Of a DNA stretch of 64,000 nucleotides, positions 245 to 61,118 are shown one piece after another. The notes below the pieces were generated by a model. The model was not told the DNA's origin. It was given only the letters and a program-made list of their open reading frames with translations, and did no database searches. Both the position numbers and the translations under genes were made by a program. The first letter of the stretch is position 1. Every line of letters begins with the position of its first letter. The stretch comes from Eledone cirrhosa (lineage: Eukaryota): the NCBI GenBank assembly GCA_964016885.1, contig OZ024758.1, positions 25,544,001 to 25,608,000 of the forward strand. Direction: 5' to 3'.

Positions 245-800
245 TACAATGTTGTGGGTTTAACCCTTTAGCATTTAAACCAACCATATCCAGCCAGAAA
301 TCTCTCACCTCTTTCTGTTCAAACTAGTCGTAACCGGCCACTCATACTGATATTAAAGTATTGTTCTCAACATAAATGATATCGAAATGTCATAGGTTCA
401 ATATTATGTGAGATATTATGTAAGATAAAGCCTTTACCACAAATATATAATACAATAGTATATATATATATATAGAGTACTGTAAATGCTAAAGGGTTAA
501 TTCCTCAACTGGGTTGTGTGTTGTGTTCTTGAGCAAAACACTTCATTTTACATTACTCCAGTATACTCAGCTGAAAATGAGTACCAGCAATAGCTGGGAG
601 TGTAACCCTGTGATGGACTGACGTCCTGAAAATGAGTAACATCAATAGCTAGAGCTCTAACCCTGTGGTGGACTAGCGTCATGTCCAGGAGGGGTGGGTG
701 GGGTGGGGGTATTGTACTCTTACTCGCTTCTCGCCTCTGAAACTGGGATAAAGCACAGTCCTGATGAGACTCCGGGCCCGAAACAGACTTCAGACATCCA
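245..800 (+). mobile_element. tRNA-derived SINE interrupted by a piggyBac-type MITE
   Basis: Collinear with the intact copy at 36058-36345 once 264-500 is removed. Confidence 0.65.
264..496. mobile_element. piggyBac-type MITE
   Basis: TTAA|CCCTTTAGCATTTA ... TAAATGCTAAAGGG|TTAA; about 9 related copies in window. Confidence 0.85.
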
Positions 801-15632: not shown

Positions 15633-18600
15633 GTGAATAGCAGGTGAGAGTGGGGCAAGCCTTGTATAAGAATGGCAGGTCAGAGTGGGGCAAGCCTTGT
15701 ATAGGAATGGCAGGTGAGAGTGGGGCAAGACTTGTATAGGAATGGTAGGTGAGAGTGGGGCAAGCCTTGTATAGGAATGGTAGGTGAGAGTGGGGCAAGC
15801 CTTGTATAGGAATGGCAGGTGAAACTGGGGCAAGACTTGTATAGGAATGGCAGGTGAGAGTGGGGCAAGTCTTGTATAAGGATGGTAGGTGAGAGTGGGG
15901 CAAGCCTTGTATAGGAATGGCAGGTCAGAGTGGGGCAAGACTTGTATAGGAATGGCAGGTAAGAGTGGGGCAAGCCTTGTATAGGAATAGTAGGTAAGAG
16001 TGATGCAAGCCTTGTATAAGAATGGCAGGTGAGAGTGGGCCAAGCCTTGTATAGGAATGGTAGGTGAGAGTGGGGCAAGTTTTGTATAGTAATGGTAGGT
16101 GAAAGTGGGGCAAGCTTTGTATTGGAATGGTAGGTGAGAGTGGGGCAAGCCTTGTATAGGAATGGTAGGTGAGAGTGGGGCAAGACTTGTATAGGAATCG
16201 TAGGTGAGAGTGGGGCAAGTCTTGTATAGGAATGGTAGGTGAGAGTGGGGAAAGTCTTGTATAGGAATGGTAGGTGAGAGTGGGGCAAGTCTTGTATAGG
16301 AATGGTAGGTGAGAGTGGGGCAAGTCTTGTATGGGAATGGTAGGTAAGAGTGATACAAGCCTTGTATAGGAATGGTAGGTGAGAGTGGGGCAAGTCTTGT
16401 ATAGGAATGGTAGGTGAGAGTGGGGCAAGCTTTGTATAGGAATGGTAGGTGAGAGTGGGGCAAGCTTTGTATAGGAATGGCAGGTGAGAGTGGTACAGGC
16501 CTTGTATAGGAATGGTAGGTGAGAGTGGGGCAAGCTTTGTATAGGAATGGTAGGTGAGAGTGGGGCAAGCCTTGTATAGGATAGGTAGGTGAGAGTGGGG
16601 CAAGTCTTGTATAGGATAGGTAGGTGAGAGTGGGGCAAGTCTTGTATAGGATAGGTAGGTGAGAGTGGGGCAAGCCTTGTATAGGAATAGTAGGTAAGAG
16701 TGATGCAAGCCTTGTATAAGAATGGCAGGTGAGAGTGGGCCAAGCCTTGTATAGGAATGGTAGGTGAGAGTGGGGCAAGTTTTGTATAGGAATGGTAGGT
16801 GAGAGTGGGGCAAGCTTTGTATTGGAATGGTGGGTGAGAGTGGGGCAAGCCTTGTATAGGAATGGTAGGTGAGAGTGGGGCAAGACTTGTATAGGAATGG
16901 TAGGTGAGAGTGGGGCAAGTCTTGTATAGGAATGGTAGATGAGAGTGGGGCAAGTCTTGTATGGGAATGGTAGGTAAGAGTGATGCAAGCCTTGTATATG
17001 TATGGGAGGTGAGAGTGGGGCAAGTCTTGTATAGGAATGGTAGGTGAGAGTGGGGCAAGCTTTGTATAGGAATGGCAGGTGAGAGTGGTACAGGCCTTGT
17101 ATAGGAATGGTAGGTGAGAGTGGTACAGGCCTTGTATAGGAATGGTAGGTGAGAGTGGGGCAAGTCGTGTATAGGAATGGTAGGTGAGAGTGGTACAGGA
17201 CTTGTATAGGAATGGTAAGTGAGAGTGGTACAGGACTTGTATAGGAATGGTATGTGAGAGTGGGGCAAGTCTTGTATTGGAATGGTAGGTGAGAGTGGGG
17301 CAAGCTTTCTATAGGAATGGTAGGTGAGTGGTACAGGCCTTGTATAGGAATGGTAGGTGAGAGTGGGGCAAGTCTTGTATTGTAATGGTAGGTGAGAGTG
17401 GGCCAAGCCTTGTATAGGAATGGTAGGTGAGAGTGGGGCAAGCCTTGTATAGGAATGGTAGGTGAGAGTGGGGCAAGCTTTGTATAGGAGTGGTAGGTTA
17501 GAGTGGGGCAAGACTTGTATTGGAATGGTAGGTGAGAGTGGGTTAACCCTTGTATAGGAATGGTAGGTAAGAGTGATGCAAGCCTTGTATAAGAATGGCA
17601 GGTGAGAGTGGGCCAAGCCTTGTATAGGAATGGTAGGTGAGAGTGGGGCAAGCTTTGTATAGGAGTGGTAGGTTAGAGTGGGGCAAGACTTGTATTGGAA
17701 TGGTGGGTGAGAGTGGGGCAAGCTTTGTATAGGAATGGTAGGTGAGAGTGGGGCAAGTCTTGTATAGGATAGGTAGGTGAGAGTGGGGCAAGTCTTGTAT
17801 AGGATAGGTAGGTGAGAGTGGGGCAAGTCTTGTATAGGATAGGTAGGTGAGAGTGGGGCAAGTCTTGTATAGGATAGGTAGGTGAGAGTGGGGCAAGCTT
17901 TGTATAGGAATGGTAGGTGAGAGTGGGGCAAGACTTGTATTGGAATGGTAGGTGAGAGTGGGGCAAGCTTTGTATAGGAATGGTAGGTGAGAGTGGGGCA
18001 AGCCTTGTATAGGAATGGTAGGTGAGAGTGGGGTAAGTCTTGTATAGGAATGGTAGGTGAGAGTGGGGCAAGTCTTGTATAGGAATGGTAGGTGAGAGTG
18101 ATGCAAGCCTTGTATAGGAATGGTAGGTGAGAGTGGGGCAAGTCTTGTATTGGAATGGTAGGTGAGAGTGGTACAGGCCTTGTATAGGAATGGTAGGTGA
18201 GAGTGGGGCAAGTCTTGTATTGGAATGGTAGGTGAGAGTGGGGCAAGCCTTCTATAGGAATGGTAGGTGAGTGGTACAAGCCTTGTATAGGAATGGTAGG
18301 TGAGAGTGGGGCAAGTCTTGTATTGTAATGGTAGGTGAGATTGGGGCAAATCTTGTATTGGAATGGTAGGTGAGAGTGTGGCAAGTCTTGTATAGGAATG
18401 GTAGGTGAGAGTGGTACAGGCCTTGTATAGGAATGGTAGGTGAGAGTGGGGCAAGCCTTGTATAGGAATGGCAGGTGAGAGTGGGGCAAGCCTTGTATAG
18501 GAATGGTAGGTGAGAGTGGGGCAAGCTTTGTATAGGAGTGGTAGGTTAGAGTGCGGCAAGACTTGTATTGGAATGGTAGGTGAGAGTGGGGCAAGCTTTG

Positions 18601-21600
18601 TATAGGAATGGTAGGTGAGAGTGGGGCAAGACTTGTATTGGAATGGTAGGTGAGAGTGGGGCAAGCCTTGTATAGGAATGGTAGGTGAGAGTGGGGTAAG
18701 TCTTGTATAGGAATGGTAGGTGAGAGTGGGGCAAGTCTTGTATAGGAATGGTAGGTGAGAGTGGGGCAAGTCTTGTCTAGGAATGGTAGGTGAGAGTGGG
18801 GCAAGTCTTGTATAGGAATGGTAGGTGAGAGTGATGCAAGCCTTGTATAGGAATGGTAGGTGAGAGTGGGGCCAGTCTTGTATAGGAATGGTAGGTGAGA
18901 GTGGGGCAAGTCTTGTATAAGAATGGTAGGTGAGAGTGGAGCAAGTCTTGTATAGGAATGGTAGCTGAGAGTGGGGCAAGCCTTGTATAGGAACGGCAGG
19001 TGAGAGTGGGTTAACCCTTGTATAGGAATGGTAGGTAAGAGTGATGCAAGCCTTGTATAAGAATGGCAGGTGAGAGTGGGCTAAGCCTTGTATAGGAATG
19101 GTAGGTGAGAGTGGGGCAAGCTTTGTATAGGAATGGTAGGTGAGAGTGGGGCAAGACTTGTATTGGAATGGTAGGTGAGAGTGGGGCAAGCCTTGTATAG
19201 GAATGGTAGGTGAGAGTGGGGCAAGCTTTGTATAGGAATGGTAGGTGAGAGTGGGGCAAGACTTGTATTGGAATGGTAGGTGAGAGTGGGGCAAGCCTTG
19301 TATAGGAATGGTAGGTGAGAGTGGGGTAAGTCTTGTATAGGAATGGTAGGTGAGAGTGGGGCAAGTCTTGTATAGGAATGGTAGGTGAGAGTGATGCAAG
19401 CCTTGTATAGGAATGGTAGGTGAGAGTGGGGCAAGTCTTGTATTGGAATGGTAGGTGAGAGTGGTACAGGCCTTGTATAGGAAAGGTAGGTGAGAGTGGG
19501 GCAAGTCTTGTATTGGAATGGTAGGTGAGAGTGGGGCAAGCCTTGTATAGGAATGGTAGGTGAGAGTGTGGCAAGACTTGTATAGGAATGGTAGGTGAGA
19601 GTGGTACAGGCCTTGTATAGGAATGGTAGGTGAGAGTGGGGCAAGCCTTGTATAGGAATGGTAGGTGAGAGTGGGGCAAGTCTTGTATTGGAATGGTAGG
19701 TGAGAGTGGTACAGGCCTTGTATAGGAATGGTAGGTGAGAGTGGGGCAAGTCTTGTATTGGAATGGTAGGTGAGAGTGGGGCAAGCCTTGTATAGGAATG
19801 GTAGGTGAGAGTGGTACAGGCCTTGTATAGGAATGGTAGGTGAGAGTGGGGCAAGCCTTGTATAGGAATGGTAGGTGAGAGTGGGGCAAGCCTTGTATAG
19901 GATAGGTAGGTGAGAGTGGGGAAAGTCTTGTATAGGATAGGTAGGTGAGAGTGGGGCAAGCTTTGTATAGGAATTGTAGGTGAGAGTGAGGCAAGACTTG
20001 TATTGGAATGGTAGGTGAGAGTGGGGCAAGCCTTGTATAGGAATGGTAGGTGAGAGTGGGGTAAGTCTTGTATAGGAATGGTAGGTGAGAGTGGGGCAAG
20101 TCTTGTATAGGATAGGTAGGTGAGAGTGAGGCAAGCCTTGTATAGGAATGGTAGGTGAGCGTGGGGCAAGACTTGCATAGGAATGGTAGGCGAGAGTGGG
20201 GCAAGTCTTGTATAGCAATGGTAGGTGAGAGTGGGGCAGGTCTTGTATGGGAATGGTAGGTGAGAGTGGGGCAAGTCTTGTATAGGAAATGTAAGTAAGA
20301 GTGATGCAAGCCTTGTATAGGAATGGTAGGTGAGAGTGGGGCAAGTCTTGTATAGGATAGGTAGGTGAGAGTGGGGCAAGACTTGTATTGGAATGGTAGG
20401 TGAGAGTGGTACAGGCCTTGTATAGGAATGGTAGGTGAGAGTGGGGCAAGTCTTGTATTGGAATGGTAGGTGAGAGTGGTACAGGCCTTGTATAGGAATG
20501 GTAGGTGAGAGTGGGGCAAGTCTTGTATAGGATAGGTAGGTGAGAGTGGGGCAAGTCTTGTATTGGAATGGTAGGTGAGAGTGGTACAGGCCTTGTATAG
20601 GAATGGTAGGTGAGAGTGGGGCAAGTCTTGTATTGGAATGGTAGGTGAGAGTGTTACAGGCCTTGTATAGGAATGGTAGGTGAGAGTGGGGCAAGTCTTG
20701 TATTGGAATGGTAGGTGAGAGTGGTACAGGACTTGTATAGGAATGGTAGGTGAGAGTGGTACAGGACTTGTATAGGAATGGTAGGTGAGAGTGGTACAGG
20801 ACTTGTATAGGAATGGTAGGGGAGAGTGGGGCAAGTCTTGTATTGGAATGGTAGGTGAGAGTGGGGCAAGCCTTGTATAGGAATGGTAGGTGAGTGGTAC
20901 AGGCCTTGTATAGGAATGGTAGGTGAGAGTGGTACAGGCCTTGTGTAGGAATGGTAGGTGAGAGTGGGGCAAGCCTTGTATAGGAATGGTAGGTGAGAGT
21001 GGGGCAAGCCTTGTATTGGAATGGTAGGTGAGAGTGGGGCAAGCCCTGTATAAGAATGGCAGGTGAGAGTGGGGCAAGCCTTGTATAGGAATGGCAGGTG
21101 AGAGTGGGGCAAGCCTTGTATAGGAATGGTAGGTGAGAGTGGGGCCAGCCTTGTATAGGAATGGCAGGTGAGAGTGGGGCAAGCCTTGTATAGGAATGGT
21201 AGGTAAGAGTGATGCAAGCCTTGTATAAGAATGGCAGGTGAGAGTGGGCCAAGCTTTGTATAGGAATGGTAGGTGAGAGTGGGGCAAGACTTGTATTGGA
21301 ATGGTAGGTGAGAGTGGGGCATGTCTTGTATAGGAATGGTAGGTGAGAGTGGGGCAAGTCTTGTATAGGAATGGTAGGTGAGAGTGGGGCATGTCTTGTA
21401 TAGGAATGGTAGGTGAGAGTGATGCAAGCCTTGTATAGGAATGGTAGGTGAGAGTGGGGCAAGTCTTGTATTGGAATGGTAGGTGAGAGTGGGGCAACTT
21501 GGTGTATAGGAATGGTAGGTGAGAGTGGGGCAACTTTGTGTATAGGAATTGTAGGTGAGAGTGGGGCAACTTGGTGTATAGGAATGGCAGGTGAGAGTGG

Positions 21601-21905
21601 GGCAACTTGGTGTATAGGAATGGTAGGTGAGAGTGGGGCAACTTGGTGCATAGGAGTGGTAGGTGAGAGTGGGGCAACTTGGTGTTTAGGAATGGTAGGT
21701 GAGAGTGGGGCAACTCGGTGTATAGGAATGGTAGGTGAGAGTGGGGCAACTCGGTGTATAGGAATGGTAGGTGAGAGTGGGGCAACTCGGTGTATATGAA
21801 TGGTAGGTGAGAGTGGGGCAACTCGGTGTATAGGAATGGTAGGTGAGAGTGGGGCAACTCGGTGTATAGGAATGGCAGGTGAGAGTGGGGCAAGTCTCGT
21901 CTAGG
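15633..21905. repeat. 35-bp G-rich minisatellite, about 180 copies, derived from RTE RT coding sequence
   Basis: Unit GAATGGTAGGTGAGAGTGGGGCAAGCCTTGTATAG; flanked on both sides by collinear RT sequence. Confidence 0.97.
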
Positions 21906-23121
21906 GATGGCATCAGTAGAGTGAGAGTTGACAATGAATTCAATGAAGAATTTACTGTGCAGGTAGGTGTTCATCAAGGCTCAGTCCTCAGCCCCCTTCT
22001 AGTTATTACAGTTCTTCAGGCCATGACAAAGGAGTTTTAAACTGGTTGTCAATGGGAGCTCCTATATTCTGATAACCTAGATCTTTTAACTGGATCTATA
22101 GATCTAAGAGAAGAAATTCTAGACATGGAAACAAAATCCACTATCAAAATACTCAAAATAAATATAACAAAGACTAAAGATTATACTGAAGTGAAAACCA
22201 AACCAAAACAGTGAGTGTATCTTACTATTTTTGGCAATATTAGGTCATGACCCTCCCCTACGTAGGAAAAAAGACAAGACCTTTTTGCCACCAATCAAAT
22301 GACTGTGCATGATAAATAAAAAATGAGTAGGTAGGAATTCCATATGATGTACTCAATGTAAACTATGAGTACACAAGAGGTGTAGTGGAATTGCCAGCAA
22401 GTTAACAGAAAAGGTAAACATTGTGTGACAGGTGTACAAGATAATTAGCAATCATAGTACTGGTAAAATAAAAATTTTCCAGTGCTTGGAAGACACCATA
22501 GAAATAGCTGATGACTTCTGTTACTTAGGTAACCTAATTAGCAGTGGAGAAGGGTACTCTGAAAACATAATAGCTTAAATATGAACAGGGTGGAAAAAGT
22601 TCAGAGTTATAACCTTTGTTGGCAACAAAGGGATTCTCTCTCCAGGCTAAAAGTAAATTGTATGCTATTTTTGTATGTAGTGCAATGTTACATGGTAACA
22701 AGATATGAGGGTTGAAATCAGAGGATGTGCCAAGACTAGGGAGAAATAGCATAAACATAATTGTTCTTACACACTGGATATGTAATGTTAGTGTGTAAGA
22801 ATGATGAAAGACAGAGGAGTTGAAGTAAAATCTCGGTATAAATGGAGTTGGGTGGTGTGTAAAAGAGAGAAGACTGCGCTGGTATGGACATGTAGTACAT
22901 ATGGTTGATGGAAGTTGGGTAAAGAAGTGCCAGGAATTCCAAGATAAATGTAGCTGTGGTAGAAGACCAACAAAAACTTGGTGAGAAGGGTTGAAAGCTG
23001 ATCTAAGAGTGTTGAACCTCTCAAAGGAATGCAACAAGTAGTGAGAGAGTGTTTTGGAGAAGACCTTTCCAACCCATGCAAGCAAAGAAAGGCAGACATA
23101 AAAAAATCGATAATGATGATC

Positions 23122-23954: not shown

Positions 23955-23965
23955 GTATATATATG
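23588..23965. repeat. (TA)n-rich microsatellite
   Basis: Direct inspection. Confidence 0.95.
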
Positions 23966-24080
23966 TAAAAGTTCTATTTAAATTGTTGGGATACAACAAG
24001 CAAATATTTTTATAACTGATATAAAGCACTCAACAAATAATTGGAGTAAAAATACGATATTAACAAATGGAAACTATATT

Positions 24081-24380
24081 TATAAAACCATATTTATTTC
24101 ATTATACATATTTCAAGGACACCAAGTTAAATTATGGTGTGCTTTCATCAGATAAAATATAATATAAATCAGTTTTATAAATAGATATTGACATACCCTT
24201 AAAGAATGCAACTATTACTGTTGGACTCGGGAGCTTCCAACAGTAATGGTTGCATTCTTTAAGGGTATGTAAATATTTATTTATAAAACTGATCTATATT
24301 ATATTTTATCTGATGAAAGCACACCATAATTTAACTTGGTGTCCTTGAAATATGTATAATGAAATAAATATGGTTTTATA
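24081..24380. repeat. Near-perfect inverted repeat (145-bp arms, 10-nt loop); probable Penelope-like element terminus
   Basis: Arms 24081-24225 / 24236-24380; homologous to 43405-43657 and 60820-60943. Confidence 0.9.
24302..24366 (+). ncRNA. Minimal type-I hammerhead ribozyme motif (mirror copy on - strand 24095-24159)
   Basis: TATTTTAT-CTGATGA-AAGc ACACCA..TGGTGT cCTT-GAAA-TATGTA-TA-ATGAAATA: intact core, stems I and II pair. Confidence 0.7.
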
Positions 24381-42987: not shown

Positions 42988-43404
42988 AAAGTTCTTCAGA
43001 ATATAAGGAACTCTCAGAGAAAAATTTCGACGGACAAAAGGGGGCGTTTAGCCTAAATGGGTTGAGAACCTGTGGTTTAGATCATCAGAGAGCATTTTCC
43101 TTTCCTAGGACAAAAATTCCCAGGAACGGCAAAATATATTGCCATCTGCCAGCTAGCACAGGATCGAATGGGGCCGAAAATTTGACCTATGCATGAACCA
43201 GCCCATAGTAGAAGCAGAAGTAAACATAGATACATTGTCTACCTCGCCACTAAAAATAGCAGCTAAATAGAACAACAGATTTGTTCTCTACATAACGGAG
43301 AATATTAAAAGAAGTTAATATCCCCACAGGTACTAAGTACCCCTGGAAATATATATATATATATATAATATCAATGATATTAAATAAATGGAAACTATAT
43401 TTAT

Positions 43405-43657
43405 AAAACCATATTTATTCTATTATATATATTTCAAGGGTACCAAAACTTTGGTACGCTTTCATCAGATAAAATACAAAGTTTGTTTTATAAATTTTGA
43501 CATAACCAAGAAAAAATACCTTAACAGTTCAAGTTTTCCTTGGATAGTTTTTCTTGGTTATGTCAAAATTTATAAAACAAACTTTGTATTTTATCTGATG
43601 AAAGCGTACCAAAGTTTTGGTACCCTTGAAATACATATAATAGAATAAATATGGTTT
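43405..43657. repeat. Near-perfect inverted repeat (about 110-bp arms); probable Penelope-like element terminus
   Basis: Arms 43405-43514 / 43548-43657; homologous to 24081-24380. Confidence 0.9.
43587..43647 (+). ncRNA. Minimal type-I hammerhead ribozyme motif (mirror copy on - strand 43416-43476)
   Basis: TATTTTAT-CTGATGA-AAGc GTACCAAA gt TTTGGTAC cCTT-GAAA-TACATA-TA-ATAGAATA. Confidence 0.72.
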
Positions 43658-43671
43658 CCATTTATTTAATA

Positions 43672-44098
43672 CTAGCAGTAAAGCCCGGCATTGCTCGGGG
43701 TCGCTCAGTAGCTGTGTTAAAGTTACAATGTTAAGTTTCTTTCTTGGCTTAAAAACTGTAGTGTCTACTGTGCAGACTTGCATGTGGTGTTTTTGATTAA
43801 TATTCCCTCAACCAACAATATGCCTTATGAAGTTAAGAAAACATAACGATAACCCGAATGTTATAACAAAAGAGGATGCTGGGGATAGAAACTGCACTGG
43901 TTATTTATTAACAAAGATCGAAAATGTAAACACTGCAACGCAGAGAAAAACATTAACGTAACCAAATTATCAGTTATGTCTGTCTGCACGCCTATATCAC
44001 CTCTCTGCACGACTGTCTGTCTGCACGCCTATATCACCTCTCTGCACGACTGTCTGTCTGCACGCCTATATCACCTCTCTGCACGACTGTCTGTCTGC
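43672..44098 (-). mobile_element. Helitron-like 3' end running into the gap
   Basis: Minus strand CCCGAGCAATGCCGGG hairpin a few nt before terminal CTAG|T; internal 37-bp tandem repeat 43977-44098. Confidence 0.55.
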
Positions 44099-44298
44099 NN
44101 NNNNNNNNNNNNNNNNNNNNNNNNNNNNNNNNNNNNNNNNNNNNNNNNNNNNNNNNNNNNNNNNNNNNNNNNNNNNNNNNNNNNNNNNNNNNNNNNNNNN
44201 NNNNNNNNNNNNNNNNNNNNNNNNNNNNNNNNNNNNNNNNNNNNNNNNNNNNNNNNNNNNNNNNNNNNNNNNNNNNNNNNNNNNNNNNNNNNNNNNNN
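44099..44298. other. Assembly gap (200 N)
   Basis: Run of N. Confidence 1.
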
Positions 44299-44312
44299 AA
44301 TACGGTGAAAGC

Positions 44313-54808
<10,496 letters not shown>

Positions 54809-55152
54809 ACACCTATATCTAGCAGTTCTTTTCTCACTCACACTCGCTGGGATCAGACGTGTCTTTTCGCTCGTCCGCACAATCTAGAACTTATGTTCAG
54901 TAAATGTCGTGGACTTGAATTTTCTCTCTCTTCCAGTTGCTCCACACTCTTCGGTTTGTTGTTTCCCGTTTTTATTCGCTGTTTTTCTCTTTTTTCCCCT
55001 TTCTGTTATCCTATATTTTTTCCCCTCCCTCCTTTGTTTTCCCAATAACCTACATAGTTATTGAAGGCACTTGGGGTAGATATCTTGTCTTTAATGCGCA
55101 GAAATATCCGCGACCCCCAGCAAACAACTGATGAGGAAAACATCAAGGAAAA

Positions 55153-55230
55153 AATTAATTCATTTACCAGTGGTTTCTTGAAGACAGATAAATATCTGTC
55201 TTCAAGAAACCACTGCTAAATGAATTAATT
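55153..55230. repeat. Palindrome with 38-bp arms
   Basis: AATTAATTCATTTACCAGTGGTTTCTTGAAGACAGATA aa TATCTGTCTTCAAGAAACCACTGCTAAATGAATTAATT. Confidence 0.9.
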
Positions 55231-55313
55231 ATCTTATGTTGTTTATTATGTAACTAAAAAGCTCTGTAGCCTACATAGAGCACTCTTTTCCTTTACCTTT
55301 CCTACGGAAATAC

Positions 55314-59860: not shown

Positions 59861-59904
59861 AGAGTGTGTGTGTGTATATATATATATATAAATATATATA
59901 TATA

Positions 59905-60425
59905 TAAAAATACGTATTTAAGAAAGCCACAACAATGCAAAGGGAAATCTCGAGGTAGGAAGTGAAATATAGATAGGAAAAACAGGTGAAAGTGAAAATT
60001 GAGAGAGACAAAGATGAAAACAAAACAAAGGTAGAAGGGTTACCGTAGTAGAGATTTAATCCCAATATTTCGGGCTCACGCCCATCAACGGGGGAAAAGT
60101 TCCAAAAGGGGGGAAACAGGCCAAGCGGAGAAAGTTGTGATGTCGTTAAGACAGGAATGCCGTCTTAACGAATTCCTGTCTTAACGACATCACAACTTTC
60201 TCCGCTTGGCCTGTTTCCCCCCTTTTGGAACTTTTCCCCCGTTGATGGGCGTGAGCCCGAAATATTGGGATTAAATATCCACTACGGTAACCCTTCTACC
60301 TTTGTTTTGTTTTCATCTTTGTCTCTCTCAATTTTCACTTTCACCTGTTTTTCCTATCTATATTTCACTTCCTACCTCGAGATTTCCCTTTGCATTGTTG
60401 TGGCTTTCTTAAATACGTATTTTTA
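59905..60425. repeat. Near-perfect inverted repeat, 254-bp arms, 13-nt loop
   Basis: Arms 59905-60158 / 60172-60425; mirror ORFs 59859- and 60265+ confirm the symmetry. Confidence 0.95.
60235..60270 (+). ncRNA. Variant minimal hammerhead-like motif (mirror copy 60060-60095)
   Basis: TCCC-CCGTTGA-t-GGGC gtga GCCC-GAAA-TA-TT-GGGA; topology intact, two core substitutions. Confidence 0.4.
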
Positions 60426-60462
60426 CACATTTCACAATGCTTCAAGCAAACTTTAACACCCT

Positions 60463-60786: not shown

Positions 60787-60855
60787 GTTCCAGACGGAAG
60801 TTGAACCGTTGAGGTCTGATTCCTGGATATGTCACTATTTATAAAACAAACTTTG

Positions 60856-60916
60856 TATTTTATCTGATGAGAGCGTACCAAAGATTTGGTACCCTTGAAA
60901 TATATGTAATAGAAGA
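60856..60916 (+). ncRNA. Minimal type-I hammerhead ribozyme motif, unpaired copy
   Basis: TATTTTAT-CTGATGA-GAGc GTACCAAA ga TTTGGTAC cCTT-GAAA-TATATG-TA-ATAGAAGA. Confidence 0.68.
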
Positions 60917-60943
60917 AATATGGTTTTATAAATATAGTTTCCA

Positions 60944-61118
60944 TGGCAGTATCGGTAGAGGGTCGGACGCCATGCTTTCCAGCATAGTTACGTCCCTTTA
61001 CGATCTGAGTTCAAATCCCGCCGAGGTTGACTTTGCCTTTCATCCTTACGGGGTCGATAAAATAAAGTACCAGTAATGCACTGGGTAATTTCTGGCCTTG
61101 TGCCTAAAGTAGAAACAA

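Follow-up and report, generated by a model that had tools for sequence, protein, structure and literature searches.

A head-to-head pair of 5'-truncated Hydra-clade Penelope-like repeats with predicted hammerhead ribozymes in Eledone cirrhosa, probably inserted by synthesis from either side of a (TA)n break

Hammerhead ribozymes in Penelope elements, opposed pairs of such motifs and tails at one end only are already known. Cervera and de la Pena (2014, PMC4209133) described minimal hammerheads in the repeats of Penelope-like elements (PLEs), including families with compensatory changes inside one genome, and attributed dual motifs lying 100-700 bp apart on opposite strands to truncated PLEs, an arrangement that is found here as well. 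Inverted 5'-truncated copies and a tail that is often present at one end only were reported by Craig et al. (2021, PMC8557442), whose supplement contains one octopus family of the Hydra clade with a different hammerhead. In vitro, a PLE protein cuts and extends both strands, two internal start sites define the tail and the RNA stays uncut (Frangieh et al. 2024, PMC11167929). For the Penelope repeat, a promoter that lies internally and has an initiator was mapped (PMC2377424). In the open-access literature, neither a published octopus family matching the one described below nor a two-ended insertion model was found, and the same literature yielded no statement of a rule of one start site per end.

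The window analyzed here is a stretch of 64,000 nucleotides of the E. cirrhosa genome, and its positions 43372-43672 hold two copies of a terminal repeat (pLTR) in head-to-head orientation. With a probability of roughly 85%, we read this stretch as 5'-truncated repeats of a Hydra-clade PLE that carry predicted hammerheads and probably entered a (TA)n break in a single retrotransposition event, by synthesis from both of its sides. Positions within pLTR copies are counted from the C of the CUGAUGA core (C3) as origin, and the predicted ribozyme cut follows +44. The inverted hairpin noticed in an earlier sequence-only reading of this DNA is real, with an inverted repeat (43406-43518 and 43545-43657) that is 98.2% complementary across 113 nt, but its extent had been given too narrowly. 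The left arm occupies 43372-43547 on the reverse strand, from a 5' hot spot (-79, CTATCC) to a short 3' end (+96), and the right arm occupies 43548-43672 on the forward strand, starting at -47. When aligned over their full length, the arms differ by one T/C in stem III, and the tail of the right arm has a 14-nt deletion. A (TA)n target repeat (43350-43371) adjoins the 3' end of the left arm in the sequence, and the same junction is present in many copies. The left arm contains a type I minimal hammerhead (43416-43476, reverse strand; core C3 at 43468, predicted cut between 43424 and 43423) and a predicted 5' stem-loop of the pLTR RNA (43502-43546, reverse strand; -10.6 kcal/mol) that starts at the 5'-end hot spot. 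The right-arm hammerhead (43587-43647, forward strand) has its core C3 at 43595, GAAA at 43628-43631 and a predicted cut after 43639, and its stem III palindrome is spoiled by one T>C change.

Sequence comparison placed a second head-to-head pair at 24.1 kb (23959-24380; locus L064) in a sister subfamily. Its left arm (23959-24225) has a long 3' end and its right arm (24228-24380) breaks off at +70. A solo copy of the same subfamily as the 43-kb pair lies at about 60798-60944 on the forward strand behind (TA)n, with its tail cut off by another repeat. Both arms of the 43-kb pair have CTGATGA, AAG/CTT, GAAA and ATAGAATA in common, and the 24.1-kb arms carry ACACCA/TGGTGT and ATGAAATA. The two pairs share one frame with different stem II letters and a stem I G shifted by one place, and the earlier description of shared core elements with a differing stem II and stem I wobble was confirmed. 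The proposal that the 43-kb inversion arose independently likewise held, as the pairs belong to different subfamilies and fold back at -79/-47 at 43 kb and at -74/-82 at 24.1 kb.

The right arm is interrupted at 43672 by a later insertion that hides its 3' end, which is predicted to be of the long type; four tail motifs of the missing remainder were searched within the window and none was found. Helitrons have a 5' TC end, a 3' CTAG end with a subterminal hairpin, and insert between A and T. The insertion (43673-44098, reverse strand) is a non-autonomous element of Helitron type with these end features: its 3' CTAG end with subterminal hairpin lies at 43673, it sits between the A and the T of the right arm, and it meets an assembly gap at 44099, so that only the 3' end is visible at this locus. 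This 3' end has 3,090 matches in the genome, and Helitron-type elements are found at the same letter of the PLE tail in 20 places. In 5 of 15 like loci that were fetched, the PLE tail resumes behind the insertion and the far end is visible. At least two Helitron-type families (L292-L306 and window position 43672) hit this same A/T step, and the targets of Helitron-type elements in general are preceded by AT-rich runs.

Several other features of the window were recorded. Positions 55138-55244 contain a fold-back cut inside the hammerhead of a different family, with a stem III like that of Hydra-1_Obim, and whole forms of this motif are present in L074 and L122. A 259-nt inverted repeat at 59900-60430 (98% complementary, arms 13 nt apart) begins at (TA)n and looks like a head-to-head insertion of an unrelated family. 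Hammerhead-like cores with a short stem II, unrelated to the 43-kb family, occur at 761-783 (forward strand) and 57356-57333 (reverse strand). About 10 kb of almost pure A/T repeat (44299-54790) lies behind a 200-N gap, and 6 kb at 16000-22000 with a GC skew near +0.7 consists of a strongly purine-biased repeat.

Each arm, read outward from the centre, is a type I hammerhead in which an 8-bp stem I, CUGAUGA, stem II, GAAA, a six-letter palindrome and an AUA triplet follow each other. Stem II comprises 3 + 7 bp around a C/C mismatch; its inner part had been drawn as 8 bp with a 2-nt loop, and folding instead gives 7 bp (GTACCAA/TTGGTAC) and a 4-nt loop. Stem III of the left arm is the palindrome TATATA. 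The folds of the single arms have z-scores of -3.3 and -2.4. A search of the genome (3.0 Gb in 1,796 contigs) returned 20,230 exact matches to the hammerhead pattern and 0 to a reversed control, and the motif is beyond chance. As an Rfam scan gave no hammerhead family among 122 matches at E<=1, the motif is recognized through its anatomy and not through a curated model.

A descriptor search across the retrieved loci yielded 196 hits in 119 forms, from which 18 were chosen to span the subfamilies and related families, with two bulged subfamily forms retained despite misalignment. The core of CUGAnGA, GAAA and UH in type I order was invariant in 18 of 18 representatives, all of them selected by a descriptor that demands this core. 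The hammerhead structure left 95.5% of the cells paired, compared with 34-56% for slid partners, both-sided changes were present in 14 of 21 pairs (4 of 8 in stem I, 8 of 9 in stem II) and 0 of 500 shuffles reached any of five measures, numbers that lean high because the descriptor demanded pairing and the shuffle ignores relatedness. RNAalifold recovered stems I and II unaided with the same 17 pairs. The covariation sought for the motif thus survives in a larger alignment; as evidence for selection, the two-copy comparison of the sequence-only reading had amounted to no more than two pairs changed on both sides and two positions where A and G interchange opposite U. The closing pair of stem II is A-U in 12, G-U in 4 and G-C in 2 of the 18 representatives, always in purine-pyrimidine order, and the 43-kb subfamily has A-U or G-U in place of the usual G10.1-C11.1 closure. 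In a distant family (2 of 18 rows) the stem III palindrome TATATA becomes TGCGCA. A pyrimidine mismatch, mostly C/C, is kept past the third stem II pair in 18 of 18 forms (alignment A2, columns 23 and 52) while neighbouring pairs turn over, and it possibly reflects a tertiary or protein contact.

An unrooted tree of ORF DNA served as an independent check, for which 60 loci were fetched and the 22 with an upstream motif match were used, one of these (L359) being an unrelated chance match. Both hammerhead variants lie about 600 nt upstream of homologous ORF stretches, which supports the earlier assignment of the 43-kb and 24.1-kb copies to one family, and the ORF pieces of the two groups share 72-76% protein identity. 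The first inner pair of stem II is G-C in the 43-kb group, A-U in the 24.1-kb group and G-U in L363, which is sister to the latter with a support of 100/100. The second inner pair is U-A in the 43-kb group, U-G in L318 and L327 and C-G in the next groups; U-A returns in L355, and this form is also present in L092. On this tree, both stem II swaps between the 43-kb and 24.1-kb copies have G-U intermediates, with the direction left free by the unrooted tree. Ribozyme evolution can be followed in this family as a clean natural series, since pairs of stem II are exchanged via G-U along an independently obtained ORF tree, and the G-U-stepped swaps argue that Hydra-clade hammerheads are kept for their structure. 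Judged from these sequences, the 43-kb motif is a real, well-covarying predicted hammerhead that belongs to a new family of a known clade.

Longer copies extend in the 5' direction across approximately 1.1 kb of non-coding DNA into the end of an ORF, and the layout of the parent element is pLTR, 5' leader, ORF (RT, CxCx5C linker, GIY-YIG), an approximately 1.1-kb 3' UTR and pLTR. In copies that hold the ORF start, the hammerhead repeat runs via the leader into an ATG about 250 nt behind the core. The pLTR tail sequence precedes the pre-ATG leader in 24 of 25 loci, with a whole hammerhead in many of them by our reading. This pLTR-ORF tandem is the order typical of PLEs. The ORF contains the motifs RWR, DKT, YRDD, CxCx5C, VIY..YIG, CxxC and CxH, and matching marks are listed in the diagnosis of the Hydra clade (section 11 of PMC8557442). 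A single ORF with RT plus a C-terminal GIY-YIG endonuclease was identified by motif alone in open frames of 689-743 codons, DKT replaces DKG in L259, L260 and L261, and the CxCx5C linker is accompanied by CxxC and CxH around a conserved E and N. The N-terminal motif is RWR where Hydra-1_Obim has RWK. Insertion into (TA)n and a hammerhead in the pLTR are of the Hydra type as well. In L062 the distance from ATG to 3' end is about 3.5 kb and exceeds the size of generally under 3 kb for this clade, a length that is given as a tendency and not as a criterion in the relevant part of PMC8557442. The proposed Hydra-clade assignment rests on the motifs and on a by-eye comparison with the alignment rows of the published supplement. 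Pfam reported nothing significant for any of four ORF pieces and four homologues, so that RT and GIY-YIG are called from motifs; precomputed PF26215 or PF28514 entries are attached to many of 103 homologues. Of 150 ORF matches that were scored, the one with the longest open frame (743 codons) belongs to a sister subfamily, and an intact source copy of the 43-kb subfamily was not seen among these 150 matches. A Penelope-like intron was considered and is not claimed, the splice donor at about -37 in the 24.1-kb subfamily being variable in the 43-kb subfamily. In the leader of L155-L178, two short tail stretches are by eye complementary to two leader stretches in crossed order, and a pseudoknot around the RT start sites is possible.

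The ends of insertions were analyzed in a sample of 100 listed out of 5,858 matches to a pattern 3' of the cut, which gave 86 events with 4 duplicate loci dropped. Among the matches listed, an inverted partner was present at the 5' end in 39 of the 86 events and a 3'-end neighbour in 0 of 86, so that independent inversion is routine in this PLE family. The insertions have two fixed 3' ends, a short one at +96 and a long one at about +192, and the template continues with TA-like letters after both. The 39 pairs among the matches listed comprise 30 long+short combinations, one long+long, one short+short and seven outside the class limits (two short ends by eye, five interrupted), and the 47 solo copies include 27 short and 19 long 3' ends. 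Tested against an independent choice of ends, the excess of long+short pairs gives p=5e-8 (30/32) or p=3e-4 (30/39). In the 24.1-kb subfamily (37 loci, our count), the long+short combination is present in 15 of 18 pairs, and the other 3 pairs are interrupted. Because the left arm at 43 kb ends at the short site, its right arm is expected to carry a long tail. Long copies bearing ORF sequence have an inverted 5' partner of the other tail type in 5 of 8 loci (L057, L059, L060, L061, L063).

At 17 subfamily-diagnostic sites, the arms of a pair disagree in 21 of 205 comparisons. Eighteen of the 21 fall at +97, the first base past the short end, and elsewhere there are 3 disagreements in at most 187 comparisons; between events, the disagreement at these sites is 44%. 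The two arms of a pair nearly always share one source, and the idea that separate source elements usually supply them was rejected on these counts. Part of the concordance could be due to gene conversion within the hairpin. One of 39 pairs with two cores (L179; G000:C1:17021100-17022400) clearly has head-to-head arms from two subfamilies and still obeys the long+short rule; another is borderline (L024) and a third flag was caused by the 14-nt indel.

The 5' ends of 125 arms cluster at -83 to -74 (30 arms), with none at -141 to -84. Ribozyme-cut RNA was considered as the template and is not supported, as only 4 of the 125 arms have 5' ends at +40 to +50, around the predicted cut. The cluster is marked by the motif CACTATCC in the 43-kb subfamily and in the sister subfamily of the 24.1-kb pair, it coincides with the 5' foot of the stem-loop, and the position near -80 is a probable start of transcription. 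Apparent clusters at -144 and -171 in the 24.1-kb subfamily were discounted, as they likely reflect where the reference copy ends. The junctions between arms are blunt, overlap by a few letters or contain short templated inserts, forms that match what end-joining would leave.

These observations are compatible with the following course of insertion. The element protein would cut both strands of (TA)n, and each free end would serve as primer for copying uncut pLTR RNA into cDNA from one or the other of two internal start sites, assisted by the TA-like letters just 3' of both. The cDNAs would stop early or at the 5' end of the RNA near -80, and their ends would then be joined by end-joining repair. 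A more specific version, which we consider evenly poised between right and wrong, is that PLE insertion is a coupled two-ended reaction, in which a protein dimer uses the long start from one side of the break and the short start from the other; two RNAs would be copied, usually from one source and sometimes from two subfamilies, and a short pLTR transcript starting near -80 would be the main template, with its hammerhead uncut. Two of the 32 classifiable pairs break the long+short rule. If true, the coupled rule would account both for inverted copies at the 5' end and for a PLE tail at one end only, and it would be readable from thousands of insertions in this genome. For an in vitro reaction already established with another PLE, the one-long-one-short rule predicts what products should form, and the family supplies numbers on how PLEs make inverted ends.

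An improbable but not negligible competitor is a fold-back, in which one cDNA snaps back on its 5' hairpin or a short palindrome, or the enzyme switches template, and the cDNA then copies itself outward. Such an origin would suit the diagnostic letters common to both arms, the stem-loop at the 5' hot spot and the many junctions where the arms overlap by 2-12 nt or where inserts are templated by the region of the hairpin. However, copying a short-ended cDNA cannot yield a long-tailed arm, and the copying of a long cDNA must halt exactly at +96, a site that is also used by solo copies. Some arms barely overlap (for example +89 to +192 and -78 to +101), one pair has arms from two subfamilies, and the 96 extra letters that are always found on one arm are left unexplained. 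Writing from both sides of one (TA)n break is the preferred reading.

The fate of the ribozyme within the palindrome bears on a further reading, according to which the palindrome itself is a selected or mobile unit, be it as a gene for a hairpin RNA, as a DNA transposon of the fold-back type or as a retrozyme that is replicated in this form. RNA reading through the palindrome folds into one long hairpin in either direction (-178 and -185 kcal/mol), and this great stability, together with the approximately 45% of events that are palindromic among the matches listed, is what speaks for such a unit. Forcing the ribozyme fold on this RNA costs about 74-76 kcal/mol; the long hairpin outcompetes the ribozyme by about 74 kcal/mol, the "hammerhead hairpin" of the sequence-only reading is not a functional unit, and the ribozyme is predicted to be silent in the 43-kb palindrome. 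As each strand carries one sense ribozyme, the dimer proposed in the cited part of PMC4209133 is impossible within the palindrome. The stem III duplex is calculated at +1.0 kcal/mol with the spoiled right-arm palindrome, against -3.2. Among inserted copies that were chosen with a pattern lying outside the core, changes affect 19 of 913 core letters and 150 of 5,859 flank letters (p=0.43). Since the core is no better kept than the flanks, the structure is maintained in lineages that are still transposing and not in dead insertions. The claim of the sequence-only reading that the RNA structure is selected stands for the source elements and fails for the 43-kb copy, whose core belongs to a class decaying like its flanks. 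The ribozyme would be selected in source elements, where it may act as a dimer, or with the help of protein, to trim RNA that is tandem or read through. Against a selected palindrome there are also junction positions that vary by locus, unequal outer ends and a 43-kb locus that has no head-to-tail array, took a Helitron insertion and lost the stem III palindrome in one arm. An ADAR footprint was not detected in the arms, their private changes (12 A>G, 19 T>C, 12 C>T, 14 G>A) being without A>G polarity. A selected or mobile palindrome is thus largely refuted and very unlikely, and the 43-kb hairpin is most likely a routine and inert insertion product, an ordinary locus representing one dead insertion among thousands.

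Least credible of all is that two unrelated insertions lie back to back or that the assembly folded one copy, a reading to which the one mixed-subfamily pair, the assembly gap 430 nt from the 43-kb pair and the contigs of four public runs, none of which covers the whole stretch and independently confirms the 43547/43548 junction, lend some room, but which is countered by the 0 of 86 neighbours on the 3' side against 39 inverted ones on the 5' side among the matches listed, by the common source of the arms, and by 43-kb arms that differ by indel, substitution and insertion, unlike a folding product.

Compared with known systems, the family resembles the metazoan non-LTR retrozymes (Li, Clavereau and Pollet 2026, 10.64898/2026.07.22.740005) in having non-coding pLTR-derived pieces with a type I hammerhead. 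The retrozymes in the cited part of that work form head-to-tail arrays with a ribozyme in each unit, whereas the 43-kb locus consists of two truncated ends, facing in opposite directions, that derive from a coding element; head-to-tail tandem units are absent, with two opposed arms only and 0 of 86 3'-side neighbours among the matches listed. With the minimal hammerheads of metazoan PLEs (PMC4209133), the motif shares the type I fold, a long stem II and a palindromic stem III fit for dimers. It differs from those described there in its 8-bp stem I, the internal C/C (or C/U) mismatch kept after three stem II pairs, the A-U or G-U closure and, by our pairing, no unpaired base between 9 and 10.1. 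The Poseidon element PAc of Anolis (PMC11167929) has in common with this family two internal RT starts that define the tail, the cutting and extension of both strands and an uncut RNA template, and no reads end at the ribozyme cut in that study. In this family, the start sites are both located within the 5' leader at a distance of 96 nt, and TA-like letters come after each of them. The in vitro start sites of PAc are the same for top and bottom strands, which does not on its own produce the coupling found here, whereas in this family the ends within a pair are as a rule different; each end of its genomic pairs uses one site, and such a coupling is not reported in the accessible text of that study.

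The closest relatives are the Hydra-clade PLEs, namely Hydra-1_Obim of Octopus bimaculoides and Penelope-13_HM, as far as they are described in the accessible parts of PMC8557442. As the hammerhead of Hydra-1_Obim has other stems, the 43-kb element represents another family. It has RWR in place of RWK, a length of about 3.5 kb with a 1.1-kb 3' UTR in place of under 3 kb, and a tail of 96 nt in place of 30-40; it is also arranged as a pLTR-ORF tandem, in contrast to Hydra-1_Obim, which is listed without a pLTR. Common to both are the C-terminal GIY-YIG, DKT, CxCx5C, CxxC and CxH, the (TA)n targets, a hammerhead that lies close to the 3' end and has a short stem III, a tail confined to one end, and the inverted 5'-truncated copy at the 5' end that is listed for Penelope-13_HM.
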